A DNA stretch of 64,000 nucleotides from an uncultured Hydrogenophaga sp. (GCA_964550405.1 CAZJZD010000012.1:754-64753), one strand, 5' to 3'. Shown: positions 25,187 to 55,093, numbered from the stretch's first letter. Program-made: numbers and translations. Notes: a model not told the origin generated them from the letters alone.

Positions 25187-26068
25187 ATGTACCCAGCCGC
25201 AATTGCCGGACAACCCTGGGATACCCGCCGCATCACGCTTGCAGGTCCCTCCGACACCATCATAGGCTTCTTCAACGGGGTGGCGAATACGGAAGAGGCT
25301 GCCCAGAAAAGTCTTGATCGACTTGAAGTTGAGTACGGCCCTCAATACAAAGACACCCCACTCAGGTACGCCCAGTTCTACAACCAGACCGCCTGCGAGG
25401 GAGGCTTTTGCCTGGAGGACATGGCCGAAACCTTCGAGCAGCGCAGCATGGCGCTCAACGGTATGTTCGCTAACCGTTGGGAAACCTTCTGGGAAATTCT
25501 GACGGGCCGGCATCAGCAAGACACATCGCTCACAGGGCGCCTGCTCAACCTGCTGGGCAACGGCAGCAATGCGCTGCTGCAGTGGCTGGACACCACCGCC
25601 ACCGCCGTGCTCAACCAGTTGGTGAACAACACCCTGCGCCTGATGACCTACTTCAGCAACTCGCCCACCGCAGCGGACAGGGCCGACCACAATACCCGGC
25701 TGTGGCGATACGCGGACGATGGCAACCAGTTGCTGTTGGTCGCCCATTCCCAGGGCAACCCGTTCGTCAACAGCGCCTACGACGCACTCATGCGGTTCAA
25801 ACCCGAAGCAAAGGCCCGGGTGGTGCATGTCGCCCCTGCGGCACCGACCCTGCGCGGAGACCATGTGTTAGCAGACATCGACCTCGTGATCAATGCTCTA
25901 CGGGGCACCGGCCTCAGCAGCGTTCCCGATGTCAACATCCATCTGCCCCTGAGCAAGATCGACCCCTCCGGCCACAGCTTCGAACCCACCTACCTCGACA
26001 AATCCCGTGCCGCCTACGCGCGCACCCGAGGCATGATCACCAGCAGCCTGGACACACTCACGCGATGA
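25187..26068 (+). CDS. Alpha/beta-hydrolase (lipase-like), possibly 5' truncated
   Basis: IIGFFNGV, LLLVAHSQGN nucleophile elbow, late GHSF His candidate; frame is open from 25091. Confidence 0.6.
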   Translation: MYPAAIAGQPWDTRRITLAGPSDTIIGFFNGVANTEEAAQKSLDRLEVEYGPQYKDTPLRYAQFYNQTACEGGFCLEDMAETFEQRSMALNGMFANRWETFWEILTGRHQQDTSLTGRLLNLLGNGSNALLQWLDTTATAVLNQLVNNTLRLMTYFSNSPTAADRADHNTRLWRYADDGNQLLLVAHSQGNPFVNSAYDALMRFKPEAKARVVHVAPAAPTLRGDHVLADIDLVINALRGTGLSSVPDVNIHLPLSKIDPSGHSFEPTYLDKSRAAYARTRGMITSSLDTLTR

Positions 26069-26082
26069 AAGGGAACAGCGAC

Positions 26083-26628
26083 ATGAACACATCTCAAAAA
26101 GTACTCACCCTTTCGCTGGCGGTCGCAGCGCTCACCGCTTGCGGCGGCAGCGATAAGCCAACGCCCCCCGCCCCGACAGCGGACACTTCCCAAAATCTGG
26201 GTGCGCAGATTCAGGCGCTGGAGGCCAGCGGCCAACTGCCCAAACTGGACCGTTCCACCGACATCAAAGGCCCAGACACTGACAACAACGGCATCCGAGA
26301 CGACATCGATGCTTGGATCGCCGCTCAGCCCATCACTGATCCCCAGAAAAAAGCGGCGCAACAAATGGCCAGAGTCCAGCAGGCAGCTTTGGTTGCGGAT
26401 CTGAGCGACAAGTCCACCTTGCAGATTCTCGGGGATAGATCGATGGCAGCAGTGAAGTGCCTTCGACAGTCGTTCATGCCCGATTACCAAAAAGGATATG
26501 ACTTGGTTGATCAAATCGAAGCGAAAACGGCCAACACCAAAGAGCGCACCAAACAGTACATTGCCTACAACCGCGCTGCGTCGGGCAGTGTCACAGAGCT
26601 TGCGCCGGGCAACAACTGCGAGCCGTGA
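26083..26628 (+). CDS. Lipoprotein, paralog 1 of DxDNNGIRDD family (putative immunity)
   Basis: LTACGG lipobox; LDRSTDIKGPDTDNNGIRDDIDAWI; alternative ATG at 26065. Confidence 0.7.
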   Translation: MNTSQKVLTLSLAVAALTACGGSDKPTPPAPTADTSQNLGAQIQALEASGQLPKLDRSTDIKGPDTDNNGIRDDIDAWIAAQPITDPQKKAAQQMARVQQAALVADLSDKSTLQILGDRSMAAVKCLRQSFMPDYQKGYDLVDQIEAKTANTKERTKQYIAYNRAASGSVTELAPGNNCEP

Positions 26629-27179
26629 ACGCCGTCCCAACCATCCGCTCACACATGCGCTTGTTGCTCAGCGGCTGCCTTCTGCTTTCCGCCTGCGGCG
26701 GCAGCGACAAGTCTGCAATATCGTCAATTGCTGCAGTTCCGTCCAGCGTGGCCGCTCAGATCCAATCCTTGGAAAGCAGCGGCCAGGTCCCCAAGCTGGA
26801 CAGCTCTACGGACATCGAGGGCCCCGACACCGACAACAACGGCATCCGCGACGACATCGACGCCTGGATCGCCGCTCAGCCCATCCCCGACACTCAAAAG
26901 AAGGCGGCGCAGCAGATGGCCCGTGTCCATCAAGCAAAAATACTGGTCGATCTCAATGAAAAAGCTGCATTGCAGGCTTTGGGAGAACGATCGGCTGCTG
27001 GCGTTGTTTGTCTTGGCGACGTATTTATGCCTGACCGCCAAAAAGGCCGTGACTTGAGAGCCCAACTCGAAGGCATGATGGCCAACACAAAGGAGCGTGC
27101 CAAGCAATACATAGCCTACAACCGTGCCGTGTCAGGCTCATCAGGTCGCGTCCCCGAGGGAAACACCTGCGAGCCATGA
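26625..27179 (+). CDS. Lipoprotein, paralog 2 (putative immunity)
   Basis: LSACGG lipobox; LDSSTDIEGPDTDNNGIRDDIDAWI; GTGA overlap with paralog 1. Confidence 0.7.
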   Translation: MNAVPTIRSHMRLLLSGCLLLSACGGSDKSAISSIAAVPSSVAAQIQSLESSGQVPKLDSSTDIEGPDTDNNGIRDDIDAWIAAQPIPDTQKKAAQQMARVHQAKILVDLNEKAALQALGERSAAGVVCLGDVFMPDRQKGRDLRAQLEGMMANTKERAKQYIAYNRAVSGSSGRVPEGNTCEP

Positions 27180-27211
27180 CCCGTACAAGCTGAACGCAGA
27201 GAACTGCATTC

Positions 27212-27949
27212 ATGAGGTTGTCCGTCAAGGTTGCTGGCTGGTTCATCTTCGCCAATATGGCCATGATGTCCGCACCAGGGGCTGTTGTCGTCACCCTGGG
27301 CTTATGGCCTTTGCGGCCTTGGCTGCCACCCATGGCCCATGACGGCGGGTTCAACCTCACCGTGTTGGCTGGCTATCTATGGCCCATCGGTATGCCTTTC
27401 GTGGTCTGGGCGCTGGATCGCTGGAAACCACGATGGGGCACATGGGTGTACCGTGGATCAGTGGCCCTTGCCTTGTACGTCTGGGCCATTCTGGTGACGC
27501 TGCTCACGCTGCTGATGGTGGCGGATTGGGTGCCGATGACCACGGCATCCGGACAGCGGCTGCAACTCGACCATTCCAGTGACATCAAAGGCCCCGACGC
27601 CGACAACAACGGCATCCGCGACGACATCGATGCCTGGATCGCTGCACAACCCATTACCGATGAGCAGAAGAAGGCGGCTTGTCAAATGGCCAGAGCCCAG
27701 CAAGCCACGCTGATGGCGGACCTTACGGACAAAGCCGCATTGGATCAATTGGGCGACAGGACCATGCGTGGCGTGGACTGTCTAGCTGATCGCTTTGAGC
27801 CAGACTATCAAACAGGCTTGGACCTGAGCGCAAAGATCGAAGCTATCACAGCCAACACCATCGAGCGCGCCAAACAATACAACGCCTACAACCGGTCGAG
27901 TTCTGGGGGCTCAGGCAGACTTCCGAAGGGCGACAACTGCGAACCGTGA
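27212..27949 (+). CDS. Membrane-anchored paralog 3 (putative immunity)
   Basis: About three N-terminal TM helices fused to LDHSSDIKGPDADNNGIRDDIDAWI domain ending in NCEP. Confidence 0.65.
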   Translation: MRLSVKVAGWFIFANMAMMSAPGAVVVTLGLWPLRPWLPPMAHDGGFNLTVLAGYLWPIGMPFVVWALDRWKPRWGTWVYRGSVALALYVWAILVTLLTLLMVADWVPMTTASGQRLQLDHSSDIKGPDADNNGIRDDIDAWIAAQPITDEQKKAACQMARAQQATLMADLTDKAALDQLGDRTMRGVDCLADRFEPDYQTGLDLSAKIEAITANTIERAKQYNAYNRSSSGGSGRLPKGDNCEP

Positions 27950-36020: not shown

Positions 36021-36703
36021 GCGCCACCGAAGGACTGCGCATCGAAGGCCTGGCCAAACGCTACGGCGACGCCGCGGTGTTCCAGTCGGTGGACCTGCAC
36101 ATCCCGCCCGGCGAATTCGTCGCCATCGTCGGCGAGTCGGGCGTGGGCAAGTCCAGCCTGCTCAACTGCATGGCCGCGCTCGACACCTGGAGCGAAGGCC
36201 GCATCACCCACGACGGCGTGGACCTGGGCCAGCTGGACGAAGCGCAGGCCGCGCACTGGCGGCGCGAACACCTGGGCTTTGTCTTCCAGGCTTTCCACGT
36301 GCTGCCGCACCTGGACGTGGCGCAGAACGTGGCCCTGCCGCTGTTGCTGCTCAACCGGCCGGACCCGGCCCGCGTGGCGCAGATGCTGGACGCGGTCGGC
36401 CTGCAAGGCCTGGGCGAACGCCTGCCTTCGCAACTGTCCGGCGGGCAGCTGCAACGCGTGGCCATCGCGCGTGCGCTGGTGCACAAGCCCCGCCTGATCC
36501 TGGCCGACGAACCCACCGGCAACCTGGACCCGCGCACCGCCGCACAGGTGATGGACGTGCTGGTCGCGCAGGCGCGCGAACACGGCAGTTCACTGGTGCT
36601 GGTCACGCACTCCGAAGCAGCGGCAGCACGGGCAGACCGGGTGCTGCACCTGACGGCTCAGGGGTTGCAAGACGGTTCGCCTGCAGCTGGTCACATCCAG
36701 TGA
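36017..36703 (+). CDS. ABC ATP-binding protein (LolD/YbbA-like)
   Basis: [37 protein letters not shown]; no adjacent permease. Confidence 0.9.
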
Positions 36704-36758
36704 CTTCCCCATAGGTGGGCGGCCTTAACCACCCTTAAACAGTTGGCGAGAAGTGAGG

Positions 36759-36778
36759 AACTGTCAGATCTGACAGGG
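36759..36778. promoter_or_regulatory. lux-box-like operator
   Basis: Perfect 16-bp palindrome CTGTCAGATCTGACAG (36761-36776) fitting CTG-N10-CAG; about 110 bp upstream of the RHS genes. Confidence 0.6.
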
Positions 36779-36884
36779 TGGGGATTTTTCGTTCAGCAGC
36801 GGTTGTTACAAACCGAAACTCAGCAAAAAGTACCCATTCAACTGCCTCCAGCAGTGCTTTTGACCCTGTTTTTTCGTGCCAAAC

Positions 36885-39800
36885 ATGATCATCGTCCACC
36901 GCCTGTTCAATCATCCCGTTGTCCGCACAGCCTTGGTGTTGACGCTTGGATCAGTCGCCATCTCAGCCCTGCCCCAGCACAGCCTCACGCCAGGCCAGTT
37001 CGCCGTGAACGATGCCGGAGCAGCAACCTACGGCATCCCCATCTCGGTCGCTCCAGGGGTGGGAGGGTTGAGCCCTAAGCTGACACTGCAGTACAGCTCA
37101 CAGGCGCCCAACGGTGTCTTTGGGGTGGGCTGGACGCTGTCTGGCGTTTCTTCCATCACGCGTTGTGCCAAGACAACGGCCGAAGACGGCGACCGGGTCG
37201 GCGTGCAGAACAACGCCACAGACCTGTTCTGCCTGGATGGGCAAAAACTGCGAGTGGTCAACGGACTTGCATATGGGGCGGCGGGCGCCCAGTACCGTAC
37301 CTCCATCGACACCTATGGACGCATTACGTCTCAGGGCAATGTGGCCGGTGGTCCGCAGTACTTCACGCTGGAGGCCAAGACAGGCGAGATCTACACCTTC
37401 GGCGGAACTGATGCCAGTCGCCTGGAGCACCCCAGCAAGGGCGTGGTTCGCACATGGATGGTCAGCGAGATCAAGGATCGCTACAACAACCGCATCAGCT
37501 TCTCATACAGCAAGAACCTCACACTGGGGGAGCAATTGCTGACCAGCGTTGACTACAGCAACGGCCGTGTCCAGCTGGACTACGAGGCTCGTCCCGAGAA
37601 CGACAGAATCCTCAAATTCGACGACGGGGTTGAATACGGTTCCACCAACTCCAGGGTCAGTGCCATCACCGTGGCGCACTCACCCGTGATCAGCGGTTCG
37701 CCCACGATCACCACTTTCAAGACCTACCAGCTGCAATACACGCAAAGCCAGGCCAGCCAGCGCAGCATGCTCAGGTCGATCAAGGAATGCGCTCCGGATG
37801 GCTCTTGTTTGCCAGCCACCACGCTGAACTATCGGGATGGCGTGCCGGGCTCATTCCGTGACGTGGGTGCAGCACCTGCCATTTCGACTCCCAACGGACT
37901 GCGGGACACCGAGGGCAATGGAAAGCAGTCTGTCTACAACTTTCGGACGCCGCCCTACTACGAAGACGTAGCGCTTTGGGATGTTGATGGCGATGGACGA
38001 ACGGATTTGTTGACTAAAAAGTTGCAACTCAACGAACAATCAACACCGACGCAGGAAATTATTGAGTACGCCAATGGCACAAAAACCTCCCGCACCTGGG
38101 ACTATCAGAACCATATACGGTGTTTTGCGGATATCAATGGCGATGGGATCAGCGAGAGCATTCGATTTGTCTCAAAATTTGTAGGCGGATCCAATTCTGG
38201 CACCACGGTTTATTCGGTCTCTGAGACTTTTGGAAACACCAGCATCCTCTTGGGTAACAACGTTCCTGTTTCATGTCACTCTATTGATATTGACGGAGAT
38301 GGACGCGCCGAAGTTTTTGTGAGCATGTATAGCGGGAGCCCAATTAACCTGACACACAAAAACGGGGCATTCTCGACCTTACCATATACACCTGAATTCA
38401 ACTACACATCAATCAAATTCGGCGACTTCAACGGAGACGGAAAGACGGACACGGTTCGCAGCTCCTCATTCGCCGGCCCCGCTGCATCGACATATTTATC
38501 CTCGGGCTCTGGCCTGAACGGACGCACCGCTTGGTCAACGGCCGTCGGTGGAATTGCATGTACTGGGGATTTTAATGGTGATGGCCGCACAGACATCCTG
38601 GGCGGTCGCAACCAGTTATTTCTATCCAATGGCAGCTCGGCGACCATCGTGAGCCAAAATGTCGTCTCCTACACCGGAAGCTTCTCCAGCAACATATGTG
38701 GAGACTTCAATGGTGATGGCTTGATGGATATCGTTTCTGGTCAACGCTATTGGTACAACCAGTTGCCAGCAGATGTGGATCGATTGGAGGCCGTTGACAA
38801 TGGGGCTGGGTTTATCCAGCGTGTGGAGTACAAGCCCATCACCGACAACAGCGTCTATACGAAGGGCGTCGGTGCGGCCTACCCTCAGACAGAAATGCAG
38901 ACCCCGATCATCGTGGTCAGCCGAGTGCAGTCGGGGAATGACTCGCAAAAGTGGCAGAACACCAGCTACCGCTACGCCGCCTTGCGGGCGGATCTGAGGC
39001 GCAGTGGCACCCAGGGTTTTGAGCGGGTGACATCCGTCAACGAAGGCACTGGCGTCAGTGTCGCCACACACTATCACCAGAACTTCCCTCTCACCGGTCT
39101 TCGCTCACGGATGCACAAGTATGTGGGTAGCGAGATCGCTCCGCATTCCTTGGAAGACACCACCTTTGGCTACATGACCCGTACGCTGGCGGCATTGCCT
39201 GCGCATCAGGCCGCGCAGGTGCATCTCAATCAGATCACGACAACGTTTTATGACCTCAAGCAACTCGGGGTCAAAACCGGCACCCTCAAGGAAAGCACCG
39301 AAGAATTCGATTCATTTGGTTTCCCGACAACCCAGAAGACGGAGCGACTTGACGGCAATGGTGTTCTGACCAGTTCAACCCAGCAAAGCCACACGTACAG
39401 CCATCAAGAGGCGACTTGGTTGCTTGGTCAGTTGACCAGGACCACCACCGCGGCGCAAAACCATCGAACCTTGCCCGCCACCGCCCCGCCGCCCTCGCCT
39501 TTGACGGTTCAGCTCAATACCACCGAGGTAGTCGCCAATCCAACGGGGCCGGGGCTCTGGAGCGGTACGCTCTCTGTCACGGCACAAGGCGCGACGCCAC
39601 CCTACTCCTACGCTTGGACGCGCATGACTGGCAACCGCACCGCCTTCTCAAACGCCGGAGTTGCGAGCCCGACGATATCGGCCACACTCGCCGCAGGTGA
39701 GGAGTTCGAAGAGACTTTGCGGGTGACGGTCACGGATGCCAACGGGGTTTCAGACTCCCGCGAGGTTGTTGTTCGCTACGTCACGCCGTTCCCATTCACG

Positions 39801-40421
39801 TCAACGATCACCGCGAACACCTCCAACTACAACCTGCGTGCGGCTGCAGTCGCTGCGGGATGGAACCAGACATCGCAGTTGCGAGCGGTGGTCACCATCA
39901 ACGCGGGTGTGATGGTCTCGGCCAATACCGTGAGCGCCTACGCTTTTGACACCGGTGCAGGCTTCCCGGCGGGCAGCACCCTTGCACTGATCAACAACGG
40001 CTCCATCATCGGCATGGGAGGAGCCGGCGGAGCGGGCGGGATGTTCGGAGCCCAGGGCGCGCCAGGTCAAGCTGGGGGGCCTGCCCTGAGAGCGCAGTCA
40101 CCTTTGGTCCTGACGAACAACGGAACCATCGCATCCGGTGGCAATGGTGGTGCTGGCGGAGCAGGATGGACCAGATCGACGAGCAGAGCTGACATGTATA
40201 TGTCGGGAGCGAGGGGAGGCGGAGGCCGTTCCGGAGCGACCAACTCTGCGGGGGGGAACCCGGGCACCGCTGCAGCACCCGGAGCAGCCTCTTCACCCAC
40301 TGGGGCCCCAGCCTCTGCTACAAGCCAACCCGGCGGCCAATACGGCGGGGGTGCTGCGGTAGTGGGCAATGGCAACGTCGAGTGGCAAACCACCGGCTCG
40401 CGCCTGGGCGCGCTGAACTGA
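36885..40421 (+). CDS. TcB-like RHS N-terminal half: signal peptide, SpvB, FG-GAP propeller, midN-like region, Ig-like domain and Gly-rich gp38-like adhesin domain
   Basis: GAATYGIPISVAPGVGGLSPKLTLQYSS..NGVFGVGW; six D(F/I/V)(N/D)GDG repeats; PPYSYAW..VTVTDANG; INNGSIIGMGGAGG..GGAAVVGNGNVEW; alternative GTG at 36876. Confidence 0.8.
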   Translation: MIIVHRLFNHPVVRTALVLTLGSVAISALPQHSLTPGQFAVNDAGAATYGIPISVAPGVGGLSPKLTLQYSSQAPNGVFGVGWTLSGVSSITRCAKTTAEDGDRVGVQNNATDLFCLDGQKLRVVNGLAYGAAGAQYRTSIDTYGRITSQGNVAGGPQYFTLEAKTGEIYTFGGTDASRLEHPSKGVVRTWMVSEIKDRYNNRISFSYSKNLTLGEQLLTSVDYSNGRVQLDYEARPENDRILKFDDGVEYGSTNSRVSAITVAHSPVISGSPTITTFKTYQLQYTQSQASQRSMLRSIKECAPDGSCLPATTLNYRDGVPGSFRDVGAAPAISTPNGLRDTEGNGKQSVYNFRTPPYYEDVALWDVDGDGRTDLLTKKLQLNEQSTPTQEIIEYANGTKTSRTWDYQNHIRCFADINGDGISESIRFVSKFVGGSNSGTTVYSVSETFGNTSILLGNNVPVSCHSIDIDGDGRAEVFVSMYSGSPINLTHKNGAFSTLPYTPEFNYTSIKFGDFNGDGKTDTVRSSSFAGPAASTYLSSGSGLNGRTAWSTAVGGIACTGDFNGDGRTDILGGRNQLFLSNGSSATIVSQNVVSYTGSFSSNICGDFNGDGLMDIVSGQRYWYNQLPADVDRLEAVDNGAGFIQRVEYKPITDNSVYTKGVGAAYPQTEMQTPIIVVSRVQSGNDSQKWQNTSYRYAALRADLRRSGTQGFERVTSVNEGTGVSVATHYHQNFPLTGLRSRMHKYVGSEIAPHSLEDTTFGYMTRTLAALPAHQAAQVHLNQITTTFYDLKQLGVKTGTLKESTEEFDSFGFPTTQKTERLDGNGVLTSSTQQSHTYSHQEATWLLGQLTRTTTAAQNHRTLPATAPPPSPLTVQLNTTEVVANPTGPGLWSGTLSVTAQGATPPYSYAWTRMTGNRTAFSNAGVASPTISATLAAGEEFEETLRVTVTDANGVSDSREVVVRYVTPFPFTSTITANTSNYNLRAAAVAAGWNQTSQLRAVVTINAGVMVSANTVSAYAFDTGAGFPAGSTLALINNGSIIGMGGAGGAGGMFGAQGAPGQAGGPALRAQSPLVLTNNGTIASGGNGGAGGAGWTRSTSRADMYMSGARGGGGRSGATNSAGGNPGTAAAPGAASSPTGAPASATSQPGGQYGGGAAVVGNGNVEWQTTGSRLGALN

Positions 40422-40442
40422 ACTGGATCCTCTGAGGCAGAC

Positions 40443-49607: not shown

Positions 49608-50818
49608 ACCAGACCTTTGCCGTGCGCTACCTGCGCCTGGGTGACGACCGGGTCAGCGAAGAACGCCTGCAGGCCGAAACCGAAGCGGGACTGCGCCAGC
49701 AACTGGCGGCTCAAGGTTTTACTGTGCTCTCGGTTCGTGGTGCGTCCCCACCCACCTTCTCACGATCCAGAAAACCCCAACGCGGCCGCTTCGCTCTGTT
49801 CTGCCGGGAGGTCAGCACGCTGATCCAGGCGGGTATGACGGTGGTGGAGGCGGTGGACACGCTCAGCGCCCGTGAGCGGCTGGCCGGGCAGGCGGACAGC
49901 CTGGCGGCGCAGCTGCTGGGTGAACTGGAGCAGGGAATGTCTTTGTCGCAGGCGCTGCAGCGGCTGCCCGATGCGCCAGCGGTGCTGGTGGCGGCGGTGC
50001 GCGCGGGCGAACGCACCAGCGACCTGGCTCAGGCGTTGACGGATTACCTGCAGTTCGACACCCTGGTCGAGCAACTGCGTCGCAAGGTTGTGAGTGCGGC
50101 GATCTACCCGGCACTGGTCACCGCGCTGGGCGTTGGTATCTCGCTGTTCTTGTTGCTGGTGGTCATGCCCAACTTTGCGCGCATGTACACCAATCTGCGT
50201 GGTGGTGGCATGGGCGGCGGCGGTGGTCCCACCAGCTGGATGATCGCTCTGGCGCAATGGGTGAGCGCGCATCAGGTCGCCACGCTGACGGGTGTCGCGC
50301 TGGCTTTGTTGGCGCTGGGGTTGTGGATATGGAGCGGCGCCGCACGGCGGCAAGTGCTGGCCCTGGCGCTGCAAGTGCCGTGGGTGCGCATGAGGGTGGA
50401 GGATTTCCAGCTGGCCATGCTCTACCAGGCGCTCGCGCTGATGCTCAAGGGCGGCTACCCCATGACCGAAGCGCTGCAGGTGGCCAGCCGTTCGGCGCTG
50501 GACGCCCGCCTGACGGTGGCCCTGCAACAGGCTTTGCAGCGCATCGAACAGGGGGGTGCGGTGGCCCAGGCACTGGCAGACGCGCGGCTGTGCGATGAGG
50601 TGGGACGGCGCTTGATGGCGGCGGCCGAGCGCAACGGGGACTTTCACCTGGCGGCCGACGTGGTCTCGCGCCTGCACCGCGAGCGCTTTGAGCTCTTTGT
50701 GGAGCGCCTGACCCGCATCGTCGAACCGGTGCTGCTGATGGCCGTGGCCCTGATGGTGGGCGGCATCGTCGTCATGATGTACCTGCCGGTGTTCGACATG
50801 GCCACCCGGCTGCGCTGA
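49604..50818 (+). CDS. gspF: T2SS inner-membrane platform protein
   Basis: VSTLIQAG, AGERTSDL, VVSAAIYP, IVEPVLL, MYLPVF. Confidence 0.9.
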   Translation: MNQTFAVRYLRLGDDRVSEERLQAETEAGLRQQLAAQGFTVLSVRGASPPTFSRSRKPQRGRFALFCREVSTLIQAGMTVVEAVDTLSARERLAGQADSLAAQLLGELEQGMSLSQALQRLPDAPAVLVAAVRAGERTSDLAQALTDYLQFDTLVEQLRRKVVSAAIYPALVTALGVGISLFLLLVVMPNFARMYTNLRGGGMGGGGGPTSWMIALAQWVSAHQVATLTGVALALLALGLWIWSGAARRQVLALALQVPWVRMRVEDFQLAMLYQALALMLKGGYPMTEALQVASRSALDARLTVALQQALQRIEQGGAVAQALADARLCDEVGRRLMAAAERNGDFHLAADVVSRLHRERFELFVERLTRIVEPVLLMAVALMVGGIVVMMYLPVFDMATRLR

Positions 50819-50851
50819 GCGACGCGGCACCAACTTCTGTTTTTCCTCGAC

Positions 50852-52495
50852 ATGTCACAGGCCAACCCCACACATCGCCCCCCCACCGCCGAACAGCTGA
50901 TGCAGGCGATTGAGCGTGCGCGCGCAGGTGGGGCGGCAGATGATGGCGCTCTTTGGCAACGGCTGCAGACCGAGTTCGAGAACAGCACCTGGGCACCCGT
51001 GCTGCTCGCTCACCACGGCGTGACCGGGGTACCCGATTCGGCGCTGGAGCGGGCGCAGATTGCACGGGTTCCGGGGGCCGATGAAGGACTTCGGGTTGCT
51101 TTGCCAGATGGGGTGTTCCTGCTGTTCGACGACCCCTGGTCGGGCTCCGCCACCCGAAGCCTGCAGCGCATGGCTGCTGCAGGTGCGCGACTGGCCTTGG
51201 CACAGCCGGGACAGTTGCAGCGTTTGCGAAGACTTTTGCCCCAAGGCGCAGACCGCTCCGCTCAAGCGCCACCGGCCAAAACCCCAGGAACGGTGAACTC
51301 ACCCACGGCGATGAGCCCGGTGGTGGCTTTCGTGAGCCAGGCGATCGAACGCGCCTATTCCGACGGCGCCAGCGACATCCACTTCGAGACCGACCGGCAG
51401 GGCGTGGGCGTGAAGTACCGGCTCGACGGCGTCATGGCGCCCGGGCCTCGGCTGAACGATGCGCAGCGCGCCGAGGAGGTGATTTCGCGCATCAAGGTGC
51501 TGGCGCAACTGGACATCACCGAACGCCGGCGCCCGCAAGACGGGCGCATCCACTGGCAGCCTGAAGGATCGTCTGAAGCGGTGGATCTGCGCGTTTCCAT
51601 CATGCCCAGCATCTTCGGTGAGGATGCGGTGCTGCGGTTGCTGGACAAGGCTCAGCTGCGCCATAGCCAGAGCAGTGTCTCGCTGGATCTGTTGGGCTTT
51701 GGCGGCGAAGTAGCCGAGCGCATCCGCGACCTGGCTGCCCGCCCCCACGGCATGCTGCTGATCACCGGGCCTACCGGCAGCGGCAAGACTACCACCGTCT
51801 ATGCAGCGCTCACCGAAGTCAACGACGGGTTGGAGAAGATCATCACCATTGAAGACCCGGTGGAGTACGAGCTGCCCGGGGTGCTACAGATTCCGGTCAA
51901 CGAACAGAAGGGGTTGACCTTTGCCACCGGACTGCGCTCCATCCTGCGCCACGACCCGGACAAGATCCTCGTCGGCGAAATCCGTGACGCAGAAACCGCG
52001 CAGATTGCGGTGCAGTCCTCGCTGACCGGGCACCTGGTCTTCACCACCGTGCACGCCAACAGCCTGTTCGACGTGCTGGGGCGCTTCCAGCACTTCGGGA
52101 TTGAAGCCTTTGCGCTGGCTTCGGCGCTGAACGGTGTGGTGGTGCAGCGCTTGCTGCGTCAGGTTTGCCCGCAATGCACACAGTGGCGCGATCCTGCGCC
52201 GGACGAACAGACCAAGCTGAGCGCGTTGAGCCTGTCCGTGCCCACTCGAATCCCGGTGCCACAGGGCTGCCCACATTGCAGGCACACCGGCTACAAGGGA
52301 CGCTTTGTGGTGGCCGAGGTGCATGTGCTCAGTGACCAGGTTCGTGACCTGATGGTGGCCAAGGCGAGCATGAGCGAGTTCAAGCAGGTGGTCTATCAGG
52401 ATCCGTCGCAACGCCTGATCGCGCAAGCCATTGAAATGGTGCGGCAGGGCCGAACCACACTGGAGGAGGTGACCCGTGTGGTCGGTCTGGTCTGA
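50852..52495 (+). CDS. gspE: T2SS assembly ATPase
   Basis: GASDIHFE, LDITERRRPQDG, GPTGSGKTTT, IEDPVE, LRHDPD, CPQC and CPHC. Confidence 0.93.
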   Translation: MSQANPTHRPPTAEQLMQAIERARAGGAADDGALWQRLQTEFENSTWAPVLLAHHGVTGVPDSALERAQIARVPGADEGLRVALPDGVFLLFDDPWSGSATRSLQRMAAAGARLALAQPGQLQRLRRLLPQGADRSAQAPPAKTPGTVNSPTAMSPVVAFVSQAIERAYSDGASDIHFETDRQGVGVKYRLDGVMAPGPRLNDAQRAEEVISRIKVLAQLDITERRRPQDGRIHWQPEGSSEAVDLRVSIMPSIFGEDAVLRLLDKAQLRHSQSSVSLDLLGFGGEVAERIRDLAARPHGMLLITGPTGSGKTTTVYAALTEVNDGLEKIITIEDPVEYELPGVLQIPVNEQKGLTFATGLRSILRHDPDKILVGEIRDAETAQIAVQSSLTGHLVFTTVHANSLFDVLGRFQHFGIEAFALASALNGVVVQRLLRQVCPQCTQWRDPAPDEQTKLSALSLSVPTRIPVPQGCPHCRHTGYKGRFVVAEVHVLSDQVRDLMVAKASMSEFKQVVYQDPSQRLIAQAIEMVRQGRTTLEEVTRVVGLV

Positions 52496-53216
52496 ACGGG
52501 TGGATGTTTACTTGGGCACCGGCCTGGTGCTGGTTCAGCGTCCGGGCATGCCCTTGTGGACCTTTGCGCCACCGGCGACATGGCCACTGGCCGATGTGCT
52601 GCGGCAGGTGGACCAAGCGCTGGACCGGGGCAAAGCCAAGCCCTGGCGGTTGCACGTGTGCCTCTGCGCCGCGCTGTGTCCGCCGGTGGCGTTTATGGCG
52701 CCCGCTGGTGTCAGGCAGCATGCGGAGTTGCTGGCCATCGCCCGGGCCAGTGCTGCGCGGGCGTGGGATATGCCAGCTGAGCAAGCTGACCAGATTGTAT
52801 GCAGCCTGGATGCCCGTCACCATGGCCTGGCGGCGGCCATGCTGGAGGGCACCCACCGGGTGATTGCCCAGTGGGCCACAGAGCAGAAGGGCCGACTCGC
52901 CAGTCTTCGGCCCATTTGGGCTGCTGCCACGGCTGCGAAGGCATGCGCAGGACCGCAAGTAGCAGGTGTGGCGGTGCTGGAGCCAGATGCGCTGACGGTC
53001 TTGCGTCTGCAACCGACGGTTGCCGTGCGTGCCAGAAGCTATGCAGGGCGATACGAAGCTGCAGATGCGGCGTCTCGGCTGGCCAAGATGTGCGATCAGG
53101 AAGCTGAATCCGAGCGAAGAACGGGTGTGGCGATGAGGTTCACCCGAGAGCCTGCACCGACTTTGTGGACGAAGGGGCCAACTGCCTGGGCGAAGCACTG
53201 GAGCGTGCTGCCATGA
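52476..53216 (+). CDS. Hypothetical protein, positional GspL-cytoplasmic/PilM-like component
   Basis: Overlap-coupled between gspE and PilN-like gene; no clear motif. Confidence 0.45.
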   Translation: MWSVWSERVDVYLGTGLVLVQRPGMPLWTFAPPATWPLADVLRQVDQALDRGKAKPWRLHVCLCAALCPPVAFMAPAGVRQHAELLAIARASAARAWDMPAEQADQIVCSLDARHHGLAAAMLEGTHRVIAQWATEQKGRLASLRPIWAAATAAKACAGPQVAGVAVLEPDALTVLRLQPTVAVRARSYAGRYEAADAASRLAKMCDQEAESERRTGVAMRFTREPAPTLWTKGPTAWAKHWSVLP

Positions 53217-53743
53217 GACCCGTGCAGATTGATTTTGTCGCGCCGAGGGCCTGGAAGTTCATCTGGGCGGCTGGGGCCGTTGTGGTGCTGGCGGTCCTGG
53301 CAACGAGCGGTGCCAAGCTCTGGCAGCTGAGGCAACAGCGGGTGGCGCTGGAGCAGCAGTTGACTGCCTTGCAAGCACAACAGCTGCAGCGGCTTGCACA
53401 AACAAAAACGGTAGAGCCATCACAAGGCAACCCGCGAGCCGCCAGTGAAGCGATGGCCCGTCGCCTGCTGCAACGCGACTGGAACCGTTTGTACGACGCC
53501 ATCGAAACCCCGGCGCTTGCCAAGGTGCGGCTGGTTCAACTGAACATGGATGCGGTGACCGGGCAGGCGATGCTGGAGTACGAGCTGGAGTCCATGGCAC
53601 AGGCGGGGGCTGTGACGCAGGCGCTCAACGACGCATCCGGTCCATCAGGCGTCTGGCAACTGGAGCGACTGGAGAGCTCCGGACAAGGTGACCCGGCTGG
53701 AGTCGCCAAGATCAAAGGGGTGTGGCGGGCCGAGCTTCAATGA
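53213..53743 (+). CDS. PilN/GspL-periplasmic-like protein
   Basis: MRPVQIDF, single TM, coiled coil, WNRLYDAIE..VRLVQL. Confidence 0.55.
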   Translation: MRPVQIDFVAPRAWKFIWAAGAVVVLAVLATSGAKLWQLRQQRVALEQQLTALQAQQLQRLAQTKTVEPSQGNPRAASEAMARRLLQRDWNRLYDAIETPALAKVRLVQLNMDAVTGQAMLEYELESMAQAGAVTQALNDASGPSGVWQLERLESSGQGDPAGVAKIKGVWRAELQ

Positions 53744-53836
53744 GCGTGTCGGTGTCTTGATGCTGAAGGCTACGCGTCCACATCCTCAGTTCATGGCGCA
53801 TCAACCCGGCCCGACACCGCAACCGAACCGCGCGAC

Positions 53837-55093
53837 TCAGGTCTTCAAAAACAAATCCCGATCCGGTGCGAAGCTCGCGTGTAGCGGCAGCAGCGCGCCG
53901 CCGAGGGCGCGCGCGTCTGACCCGATGCTGCCCGCGCGCAGCGGCGGCGGGGTCTGCAGGCCTTCCCAGTTGTAGGCGGCCAGCGCCTGCTGGGTGCGGT
54001 CGATCAGTTCGGCCAACAGGGCCGGGGCGACCACGCCGTCGATGACGACCGCTTCCAGATCCAGGAAGGCGGTGCCCGAGACGATGCAGTGCGCCAGCGC
54101 GAGGGCGGCACGGTCGATCCACTCGCGGGTGTGGGGCAGCCACGGTGCCTGCAACGCGCGGGCGTCGTAGGCGGCCATGGGATCCAGGCCGTGTTCGCGC
54201 AGGCGCTGTTCCAGGTCCCAGAGCGAGGCCTGGCTGATGAGCTGCGGCGGCACTTCCTTGAGGTCGGCAGAGGCGACGCCCAGCGGCAGCGAGGCCACCG
54301 CGCCGGCGTTGCCGTGTTCGCCGCGGTGCAGGTGCGAATGCAGCACCAGGCCGCCGCCGACGAAGGTGTCGAGGAACAGGTACAGGAAGCTGTGGATCTC
54401 GCGGCCCTTGCCCTGCAGCAGCTCGGCCACGCAGGCGGCCGCCGTGTCCTTGGCAAAGCTGACCGGCAGGTGGGTCATGCGCTGCACCTCGGCCGCCAGA
54501 TCGAGGTGGTTCCAGGCGTCGGACTGGGCTTCGGTCAGGCCCAGCATGCGGTGCCAGCCGCCCAGCTGGAAGGGCGCGGCTACGCCGACGCCGACCACAC
54601 GCGGCGCCAGCGGCCCCAGGCGCGCCAGCAGTTCGTTCAGGTTGCGCTGGATCAGCGGCAGCAGGGTGGCGGCGTCGGGGAAGTGGTAGGTCACGCTGAT
54701 GCGTTCGCGCACCGCGCCGGTGAAGTCGACCAGCAGCCAATCGGCGCTGCGGCGCGCGATCTTGATGCCGATGGCGAAGGCCCCGTCCGGATTGAGGCCG
54801 ATGGGCACCGAGGGCTGGCCCACCTTGCCGCGCACCGGCTCGCCTTTGGTGAGCAGCTGGTCTTCGTCGAGCCGTGCGGTGATCAGGCCGATGGTCTGCG
54901 CGGTCAGGCCGGTGAGGCGCGCGAGGTCGGCCTTGGCCAGTGCCCCGTGGGCGCGCAGGGCCTGCAGCACCACGCGTTCGTTGAACTGTCGCACGCCCTC
55001 CTGGTTGGAACCGCGCTGGCGCAGGGGTTGCGCTTCGGCGGTTCGGATCGGGAGGTCGGTGGCGGCGTCGTTCACGGTGACAGAGTGTGACAC
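53837..55093 (-). CDS. ROK-family transcriptional regulator (FrcR-like)
   Basis: RGSNQEGVRQFNERVVL HTH, GKVGQPS, DTFVGGGLVL..GNAG. Confidence 0.88.
   Translation of the reverse strand: MSHSVTVNDAATDLPIRTAEAQPLRQRGSNQEGVRQFNERVVLQALRAHGALAKADLARLTGLTAQTIGLITARLDEDQLLTKGEPVRGKVGQPSVPIGLNPDGAFAIGIKIARRSADWLLVDFTGAVRERISVTYHFPDAATLLPLIQRNLNELLARLGPLAPRVVGVGVAAPFQLGGWHRMLGLTEAQSDAWNHLDLAAEVQRMTHLPVSFAKDTAAACVAELLQGKGREIHSFLYLFLDTFVGGGLVLHSHLHRGEHGNAGAVASLPLGVASADLKEVPPQLISQASLWDLEQRLREHGLDPMAAYDARALQAPWLPHTREWIDRAALALAHCIVSGTAFLDLEAVVIDGVVAPALLAELIDRTQQALAAYNWEGLQTPPPLRAGSIGSDARALGGALLPLHASFAPDRDLFLKT

Follow-up and report, generated by a model that had tools for sequence, protein, structure and literature searches.

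The region from 36.7 to 53.9 kb of a 64,000-nucleotide (nt) stretch of DNA from an uncultured Hydrogenophaga sp. (GCA_964550405.1 CAZJZD010000012.1:754-64753; this whole stretch is the window, in whose coordinates positions are given) contains 14 genes, all on the + strand: a pair of genes for TcB-like and TcC-like toxin chains, a small open reading frame (ORF), the remnant of a gene for a Y1/RAYT-like protein (RAYT, REP-associated tyrosine transposase), and ten genes of a cluster resembling a type II secretion system (T2SS). The region is probably a single accessory module of cargo plus exporter, in which a Tc-like BC cocoon lacking TcA is combined with a T2SS-like machine of the type IV filament family. 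Nearly all of the related loci examined show the same pairing, and it is therefore very likely that toxin pair and machine act jointly as an antibacterial weapon that would be secreted.

Linkage of the toxin genes to the cluster across genomes

At the level of the family, full-length orthologues of the cluster's cohesin-tailed secretin (44-61% identity) are present in about 25 of 301 genomes, and TcB-like genes in 26 genomes besides the window's own. Both are found in 20 family genomes, in 17-18 of which they lie within about 12 kb of each other on the same contig. A wider scan of GTDB, with one genome per species and an alignment of the secretin as query, returned 356 relatives, of which the best 80 loci were used. 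A locus was taken as fully flanked if it had 10 kb of sequence upstream and no less than 7.5 kb downstream, and TcB-like and TcC-like genes were called at E <1e-10. Under these definitions, a TcB-like gene, a TcC-like gene or both lie within 10 kb at 34 of the 35 fully flanked orthologous loci, and 19 loci have both. The genera in the survey are Hydrogenophaga, Polaromonas, Rhodoferax, Ramlibacter, Roseateles/Pelomonas, Ideonella, Rhizobacter, Aquincola, Janthinobacterium, Undibacterium and Amantichitinum, and the best match, at 83% identity, is a Hydrogenophaga.

Twenty paralogous TPR-secretin clusters of the same family (36-43% identity) served as a control. None of them has a TcB-like gene, and distant RHS fragments are present at four. 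They are arranged as GspF-GspE-x-TPR-secretin-pseudopilins, often with a secretin that lacks the cohesin. Six paralogous clusters from other families of the class (L160-L165) are alike, apart from one SpvB-like match downstream (L161). In a class-wide draw, only the paralogous type of cluster turned up outside Burkholderiales, and no link to Xanthomonas loci could be made. These paralogous clusters (L136-L155, L160-L165) are widespread in the family and the class, and one is also present in G169 (C1:1597127-1598998), a genome without the module. The first-pass annotation of this DNA had proposed that its idea of an RHS toxin with its own T2SS would fall if RHS genes and this type of T2SS were not linked across genomes; this comparison was made and the linkage is there, specific to the orthologous clusters and, with its recurrence at 34 of 35 loci, far beyond a chance arrangement of neighbours.

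The toxin genes and the cluster are also gained or lost together, as a block with the following limits:

36658-53861, no strand assigned: accessory block of 17.2 kb, comprising the toxin pair and the secretion cluster, absent from the syntenic site of same-genus genomes

When the flanks of this block are joined, they align contiguously in the same-genus genome G169, with break points at window positions 36657 and 53862, and no TcB-like gene was found anywhere in that genome. To judge from the empty site of G169, the 17.2 kb that hold the toxin pair and the machine are either there or missing as one unit. The site is likewise empty in G302. The closest relative examined, G306 (C18:21112-22342; L156 1613-2830), has flanks at 91-93% identity and carries an unrelated 1.2-kb insert at this site, with two small minus-strand ORFs that may be a toxin-antitoxin pair.

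Within the linked neighbourhood, the place of the toxin genes varies by genus: they are found upstream of the cluster on the same strand, divergent from it, or downstream of it. Secretin distances correlate closely with those of GspE or GspF (Mantel r = 0.86), and TcB-like with TcC-like distances at 0.76, as against 0.37 for the secretin with the TcC-like and 0.40 for the secretin with the TcB-like protein. This loose correlation between cargo and machine, together with the changes of side and strand, indicates that the cargo is exchanged while the neighbourhood is kept, and that the linkage is not merely a frozen ancestral synteny.

The toxin pair, its adhesin and its tip

The genes upstream of the secretion cluster, whose products were scored with Pfam, NCBIfam and PHROG profiles, are the following:

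36885-40421, + strand: TcB-like gene, 1178 residues (Pfam SpvB 6.5e-16, FG-GAP_3 7e-23, TcdB_toxin_midN 5e-10, PKD-like)
39783-40418, + strand: gp38-type (phage tail-fibre adhesin) Gly-rich receptor-binding domain, the last ~212 residues (~967-1178) of the TcB-like protein
40443-43970, + strand: TcC-like gene, 1175 residues (RHS_repeat 6e-37, YD repeats, TIGR03696 Rhs_assc_core 6.6e-20)
43976-44302, + strand: candidate immunity ORF, 108 residues, without a signal peptide, 5 nt past the toxin stop codon
44501-44797, + strand: truncated REP-associated tyrosine transposase-like (Y1_Tnp, RAYT) gene, with a premature stop after codon 98

The first toxin gene starts with an ATG at 36885; position 36704 is merely the first base past the stop codon of the upstream ABC-ATPase gene. 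Its product is laid out as a Sec signal peptide, an SpvB-like plug, an FG-GAP beta-propeller, TcdB_midN and a short YD-type shell segment that reaches to about residue 860, followed by a Pro linker, a PKD-like domain and the gp38-type domain. The Pfam matches stand in the order SpvB, FG-GAP and FG-GAP_3, TcdB_toxin_midN, PKD-like, and TcdB_toxin_midC has no match in this protein. The TcC-like gene starts after a gap of 22 nt; it encodes a Sec signal peptide (ALA|QV), a shell of about 900 residues made of RHS/YD repeats, an Rhs core with both Asp motifs of the protease (YDPDIGRF ... DPTGF, the latter at 929-933) and an orphan C-terminal toxin tip of 243 residues. A signal-peptide heuristic, with a lenient choice of start codon, looked for a basic n-region, a hydrophobic 11-mer free of charges, and small residues at -3/-1. 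The N-termini of both proteins qualify, each having a basic n-region followed by a hydrophobic core and a site of the AxA type (...AISA|LP and ...GALA|QV). By the same heuristic, signal-peptide-like N-termini are found in 29 of 31 TcB-like and 27 of 31 TcC-like orthologues, as against 2 of 15 GspE and 4 of 59 GspF proteins used as cytoplasmic controls. Sec-type signal peptides, as predicted in this way, are thus kept on both toxin chains across orthologues. The description of two consecutive large genes that bear signals and together hold the SpvB, FG-GAP, YD and RHS parts of a toxin, already given in the first-pass annotation, is therefore accurate.

An AlphaFold2 model of the TcB-like protein, built with 18 orthologues, has a mean predicted local distance difference test score (pLDDT) of 59.5. 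Confidence is good at residues 40-330 and 620-860 and low in the propeller (pLDDT 45-68). For the PKD and gp38 part, where alignment coverage is zero, the model is uninformative, and pLDDT in the gp38 region is below 50. In a Foldseek search with this model, the top 12 matches are all to TcdB2-TccC3 (6suf_F, 4o9x) or YenB (4igl), with E values from 1e-32 to 1e-27 and TMq ~0.5. At the level of sequence, the TcB-like protein matches the solved structures of SpvB (6p0x), YenB and TcdB1 weakly, and the TcC-like protein matches Rhs cores of type VI secretion system (T6SS) effectors and a bacterial teneurin-like protein in the PDB. The first protein thus has the SpvB-like, FG-GAP propeller and TcdB mid domains of a TcB in their order, with a TcdB2/YenB-like predicted fold, and the second has the RHS/YD repeats, the Rhs core with a cleavage-type motif and the variable C-terminus of a TcC or Rhs polymorphic toxin. 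By these domains and this model, the pair corresponds to the BC subcomplex of Tc toxins.

At some orthologous loci, B and C form a single chain (2105 residues at L113, probably also at L104), and open frames for fused B-C chains in the family reach 3352 residues; in the fused forms, the C part begins at the residue just after the signal peptide of the split form. The fused chains speak for a single cocoon made up of the two proteins. They also speak against a need for splitting in the passage through the secretin. The earlier suggestion that the split eases this passage is therefore not borne out, and two genes are in any case the ordinary layout of TcB and TcC.

The C-terminus of the TcB-like protein appears to provide the toxin with its own adhesin, as the first-pass annotation had supposed, in the form of a domain that resembles the phage gp38 receptor-binding type. 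It matches PHROG families phrog_10745 (8.9e-18), phrog_11439 (tail fibre, 1.8e-8) and phrog_2056 ('tail fiber; host specificity', 1.5e-7), and it scores just below the cut-off of Pfam GP38 (PF05268; 22.9 bits against 25). An exhaustive HMMER search with the domain gave 2769 relatives, many of which are stand-alone proteins of 230-330 residues above the GP38 cut-off. Several other relatives are themselves TcB-like proteins, such as P0015, which contains SpvB, FG-GAP, TcdB_midN, PKD and, at 56.9 bits, GP38. The closest TcB-like orthologue (L052, 55% identity) stops right after the shell segment, without a gp38 tip, and other orthologues have Ig-type domains or a conserved ...NPAVLSAILQILLDD peptide at this end. 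As TcB-like orthologues differ in their C-terminal ends, the adhesin tip appears to be a modular, exchangeable part. TcB-like ORFs of about 1100-1170 residues (L060, L084, L086, L092, L096, L119) end in a conserved amphipathic ...NP(A/G)V(L/M)xxI(L/M)xxLL(E/D)D sequence, which could be a docking or secretion signal; this peptide is not present in the window's TcB-like protein. Since gp38 adhesins bind outer-membrane proteins of Gram-negative hosts, it is natural to infer that the toxin would be aimed at bacteria.

At the other end of the pair, the C-termini of the TcC-like proteins are all different among 30 orthologues, as expected for polymorphic toxins. The GC content of the RHS genes is 0.56-0.65 (0.56-0.58 in parts, and 0.58 at 42-44 kb), compared with about 0.66 in the cluster. 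A single-sequence AlphaFold2 model of the tip has a pLDDT of 35 and is not usable. Between the Rhs core and the C-terminus, at 43380-43590 (residues ~980-1050 of the TcC-like protein), lie small-xxx-small Gly/Ala motifs, namely GAMARSIVGAAVQAM, IAAAMGPYA, GEMAIAGVYG and AIDAVGAVL, and the last 115 residues are polar; speculatively, this part might possibly be a membrane-entry segment followed by an enzyme. The 108-residue ORF just downstream is a candidate for the immunity protein, in view of its position and size.

The transposase relic that the first-pass annotation placed after the toxin genes is indeed a truncated Y1/RAYT-like ORF on the + strand, with the qualification that it is the decayed copy of a gene that is intact at this place in other genera. 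Intact copies of 324-331 residues occupy the same position in L081 (7923-8216) and L122 (7480-7773), L058 (3-251) has an end-truncated copy of at least 266 residues, and more decayed copies are found in L082, L098 and L114. In other genera, the gene lies 1.4-2.2 kb upstream of the secretin and encodes about 325 residues with a C-terminal tail like a helix-turn-helix. The gene may have resided at the locus for a long time, possibly as a domesticated regulator, instead of having been inserted recently. Locus L081 (CALRRO020000009.1) is labelled 'MAG: Chitinophaga pinensis', yet is of the Burkholderiales type, with a secretin 50% and a RAYT-like gene 67% identical to those of the window; this bin is probably mislabelled or contaminated.

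Scans for promoters and terminators from 36.5 to 46 kb gave sites no more numerous than in shuffled sequence. A perfect 16-bp palindrome, CTGTCAGATCTGACAG, is present at 36760-36775, with a second copy in the genome at C23:58112 (two in all). Both copies are located about 50 nt past a stop codon, with T-rich sequence after them. A lux-box was rejected as the preferred reading, as the palindrome is not upstream of any of 17 orthologous TcB-like genes, and a terminator hairpin fits at least as well.

The secretion cluster and the proposed route of the toxin

Downstream of the transposase remnant, the co-oriented ten-gene T2SS-like cluster described in the first-pass annotation is confirmed at 44878-53743 on the + strand. 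It is made up as follows:

44878-45450 (alternative start 44908), + strand: GspM/PilO-like bitopic protein (Pfam T2SSM_b 5e-5), conserved upstream of the secretin in orthologous loci
45437-45907, + strand: small periplasmic protein with a signal peptide, no family match, conserved directly before the secretin in orthologous loci
45917-48193, + strand: lipoprotein secretin of 758 residues, with lipobox LLAGC, N-terminal TPR, STN, Secretin_N, Secretin, a Pro/Ala linker and a C-terminal cohesin
48193-48696, 48701-49096 and 49083-49607, + strand: three GspG-like pseudopilins with prepilin motif G|FTL(I/V)E (Pfam N_methyl, T2SSG)
49604-50818, + strand: GspF/PilC-type platform protein (Pfam T2SSF 4e-39; NCBIfam GspF 159 against a cut-off of 424, HofC also below its cut-off)
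50852-52495, + strand: GspE-type assembly ATPase, the only ATPase of the cluster (Pfam T2SSE 9e-117)
52476-53216, + strand: putative L/PilM-like cytoplasmic protein, no family match
53213-53743, + strand: putative bitopic PilN/GspL-C-like protein, with predicted topology and no family match

The position of the small periplasmic protein suggests a PilP/GspC-like role. The secretin scores 154 bits with the NCBIfam model of GspD (cut-off 351) and 150 bits with that of PilQ, also below its cut-off. Among its orthologues, the signal-peptide heuristic is positive for 73 of 79, most of the N-termini listed have an L-(A/S/T)-G-C lipobox, and the cohesin tail is kept. The pseudopilins reach 56 with TIGR01710 (GspG; cut-off 89), and the ATPase is closer to GspE (TIGR02533, 431 bits, cut-off 630) than to PilB (390), again below both cut-offs. 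Several of the closer orthologous loci, among them L032, L034, L035 and L043, likewise have the two small genes behind GspE. The single prepilin peptidase of the genome (PilD) is encoded beside pilBC on contig C10, where the type IV pilus genes lie, and not in the cluster, which must therefore borrow it. A literature search gave no match for a secretin with a cohesin domain in type II secretion.

The rest of the window is housekeeping in character, with genes for enolase, MutL, QueG, G6PD, Edd and a ROK regulator. It includes a low-GC patch within 25187-27949 (0.587 at 26-28 kb), where a 293-residue ORF (25187-26068) has no Pfam match. The window was said by the first-pass annotation to lack VgrG, PAAR, Hcp and TcA; this stands for VgrG and TcA, as no large ORF of either kind is present, and is more limited for Hcp and PAAR, whose small genes were not searched for exhaustively there. 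Neither toxin chain contains a Pfam PAAR domain, so that instead of the PAAR- or VgrG-binding N-terminus of a T6SS-delivered Rhs protein both carry signal peptides, in a window without a VgrG-sized ORF.

In the mechanism that we favour, each toxin chain would cross the inner membrane via Sec, and the chains would fold and join in the periplasm to give the RHS shell. The aspartyl protease of the Rhs core would cut off the 243-residue C-terminal tip, which would stay inside the shell. The adjacent machine, in which the lipidated TPR-secretin-cohesin protein is joined by three GspG-like pseudopilins, by GspF and GspE and by four small platform proteins, would then carry the complex over the outer membrane, with the single PilD of the genome processing the prepilins. 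Once outside, the gp38-type adhesin on the TcB-like chain would bind to a receptor on the surface of Gram-negative competitors, which the toxin would enter, with kin cells being protected by the product of the small cytoplasmic ORF downstream of the toxin. Of these steps, we infer periplasmic assembly, passage through the adjacent secretin and release in preference to surface display, and the same applies to any role of the cohesin.

Several points weigh against this scheme. A BC cocoon is about 90-100 Å wide, which exceeds the lumen that is generally reported for T2SS secretins, so that the proposed passage of an assembled cocoon is mechanically uncertain. The core components of the cluster all score under the NCBIfam equivalog cut-offs and might build a fibre rather than secrete; no model matches GspC, GspH-K or a bona fide GspL in the cluster, and M is matched weakly, by T2SSM_b. 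The toxin tip belongs to no Pfam or NCBIfam family and has no homologue among 5.8 billion proteins, whether searched within full-length RHS proteins or alone, and the 108-residue ORF has neither a match in these family collections nor a homologue. The genome also encodes two T6SS loci, on contigs C4 and C14, and a second T2SS-like cluster on C58. TcA_TcB_BD (PF18276) and VRP1 (PF03538) have no match in this 99.98%-complete genome, a result that is provisional as control genomes gave none either. Finally, the relatedness of the genomes inflates the linkage counts, much of which could be explained by shared Burkholderiales ancestry.

The alternative that survives best, although we consider it unlikely, is surface display, in which the machine or its pseudopilus would put the cocoon on the producing cell, possibly tethered by the cohesin, for contact-dependent killing as in contact-dependent growth inhibition or by the surface-anchored WapA protein of Gram-positive bacteria. 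The conserved cohesin tail of orthologous secretins would fit this, cohesins being protein-docking modules, and some T2SS substrates do stay attached to the surface. Many TcB-like orthologues, moreover, are without a gp38 tip and end after the shell or in ...NPAVLSAILQILLDD, a possible docking motif. However, no dockerin was detected in either chain, and the C-terminus of known secretins faces the periplasm, so that an external tether is unlikely. A receptor-binding tip of phage type suits a free particle equally, and Bcn-A, an RHS bacteriocin of Xanthomonas perforans, works from cell-free supernatant (Marutani-Hert et al., 2020; PMC7259588).

It is distinctly less probable that Sec takes the chains to the periplasm only, with release by lysis, by vesicles, by the T2SS-like cluster on C58 or by a T6SS, and with the adjacent cluster serving other substrates or an adhesive fibre. 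The presence of that second cluster and of two T6SS would be in keeping with such a route, which would also avoid the size problem of an assembled cocoon in the secretin, and in the Xanthomonas precedent it was the housekeeping Xps T2SS that was used (PMC7259588). Yet the clade-specific linkage and the joint presence or absence of toxin and machine would be left unexplained, and T6SS-delivered Rhs proteins, which have the PAAR- or VgrG-binding N-terminus missing here, are not marked by signal peptides.

We give somewhat less credence again to coincidence, that is, to RHS islands repeatedly entering a recombination hotspot beside an unrelated T2SS-like or pilus cluster. The lower GC of the RHS genes, the transposase-like relic between them and the cluster, the variability of the ABC-ATPase/ROK site within the genus, with a different insert in G306, and the loosely coupled trees of cargo and machine would all agree with this idea. 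It is hard to reconcile with the contrast between orthologous loci, 34 of 35 of which have toxin genes, and paralogous clusters, none of 20, and with an adjacency that outlasts changes of side, strand and toxin subfamily, Ralstonia included. Within the genus, both parts are jointly missing, and the transposase-like gene is a conserved resident of the locus rather than a fresh insertion.

Least probable of all is an anti-eukaryotic Tc-type toxin with a missing or unrecognised TcA and without a part in competition between bacteria. In its fold and domain order, the first protein does match TcB of insecticidal Tc toxins, but TcA_TcB_BD and VRP1 were not found in the genome (with the reservation about control genomes given above), an immunity-type ORF follows the toxin, the tip is of a type of phage adhesin that is known to attach to outer-membrane receptors of bacteria, and the hosts are free-living Burkholderiales of water and soil.

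Relation to known systems and significance

RHS toxins have previously been classed by Zhang, de Souza, Anantharaman, Iyer and Aravind (2012; PMC3482391) according to SpvB/TcdB modules ('TcdB/TcaC export') or signal peptides ('T2SS'). Like the window's pair with its candidate immunity ORF, the RHS polymorphic toxins of that class combine SpvB/TcdB modules or signal peptides at the N-terminus with variable tips at the C-terminus, and they have immunity genes. In that survey, the export route was inferred from the N-terminal module of the toxin; secretin and GspG are unmentioned and no dedicated neighbouring machine is described. A functional precedent is the RHS bacteriocin Bcn-A of X. perforans, which acts in cell-free supernatant and, as the inactivity of an xpsD mutant shows, needs the T2SS secretin XpsD (Marutani-Hert et al., 2020; PMC7259588). 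Judged by its published description, Bcn-A resembles the window's toxin in its modelled plug, propeller and YD barrel, and it has an immunity gene and accessory ORFs downstream, where the window has the candidate immunity ORF. It differs in being a single chain of 1398 residues that depends on the housekeeping Xps T2SS and not on a dedicated neighbour, and neither an SpvB/TcB-like chain nor a gp38-type tip is reported for it.

The nearest published relative of the secretion cluster is found in Ralstonia. Some strains lack one of the two 'unorthodox T2SS' clusters of Ralstonia along with the rhsB gene next to it (Cho et al., 2019; PMC6428702), and one Ralstonia and one Xanthomonas Rhs family are linked to gspG, with T2SS export predicted, 'not functionally confirmed' (Gomez Cabrera et al., 2025; bioRxiv 10.1101/2025.05.08.652813). 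The secretin of the Ralstonia solanacearum species complex, represented by 110 megaplasmid records, is 42% identical to that of the window over its full length (residues 7-743), cohesin tail included. The pseudopilins are 44-54% and GspE 56% identical, GspF and the trailing hypothetical genes correspond, and RHS repeat genes adjoin the cluster (CP047139.1, GMI1000). From these sequence comparisons, the 'unorthodox T2SS' beside rhs (RRhs family II) is an orthologue of the window's cluster. It has an extra bona fide gspG, and its RHS genes, about 22-26% identical to the one in the window, point away from the cluster in divergent orientation; a search for a TcB-like partner with SpvB and FG-GAP domains detected none there. 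The Ralstonia publications cover the linkage to gspG or the joint absence, not a two-chain cocoon, signal peptides or an adhesin tip. To speak of a new system, as the first-pass annotation did, is therefore an overstatement, since a Ralstonia orthologue beside rhs (PMC6428702; bioRxiv 10.1101/2025.05.08.652813) and an XpsD-dependent RHS bacteriocin (PMC7259588) are already in the literature. What is new here is the breadth and specificity of the linkage, the two-chain TcB/TcC form with signal peptides, the empty site, the fused forms and the phage-adhesin tip.

The BC subcomplexes of Tc toxins, such as TcdB2-TccC3 of Photorhabdus and YenB-YenC of Yersinia entomophaga, are likewise encoded by two genes, with the plug, the propeller and the TcdB mid domain in the first protein, while the second contributes a hypervariable toxin tip in addition to the shell of RHS repeats and the protease of the Rhs core. 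Unlike these, the window's pair has Sec signal peptides on both chains, no TcA found in its genome, a linked T2SS-like cluster and an immunity-type ORF that follows the toxin. Its B chain also has a much shorter shell segment and ends in the PKD domain and the phage adhesin, so that the split point is another one. As for the gp38 adhesins of phages T2, T6 and S16 (PF05268), the Gly-rich C-terminus is homologous to them, and to tail-fibre host-specificity families, at the level of hidden Markov models; gp38 is attached to the tail fibre in the phage and is fused to a toxin shell subunit in the window.

RHS toxins are usually regarded as proteins that a T6SS delivers, that depend on TcA or that belong to the wall of Gram-positive bacteria. 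For their export by a T2SS, the literature offers a single genetic precedent, from Xanthomonas, and two brief genomic remarks on Ralstonia. Here, one specific T2SS-like machine and TcB/TcC-type cocoons travel together over many Burkholderiales genera, and this linkage points to a probable cargo class for the orphan 'unorthodox T2SS' of Ralstonia. Going further, we tentatively propose, with less assurance than for the module itself, that an uncharacterised secretion subtype of Burkholderiales, with a self-piloting lipidated TPR-secretin bearing a cohesin and a minimal pseudopilus, exports pre-assembled TcB/TcC cocoons as TcA-less, diffusible and receptor-targeted 'cocoon bacteriocins', aimed in the present case by a captured gp38-type adhesin of phage origin. 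If this were true, a closed shell of about 250 kDa would cross a secretin, which raises the biophysical question of how a secretin passes or assembles a cocoon wider than its known lumen. Tc-type BC modules would then also have an antibacterial life apart from the insecticidal ABC toxins. The bacteria that host the module are non-pathogenic and environmental, and the finding points to a family of secreted antibacterial particles in which a phage receptor-binding tip would be joined to an encapsulated polymorphic toxin.

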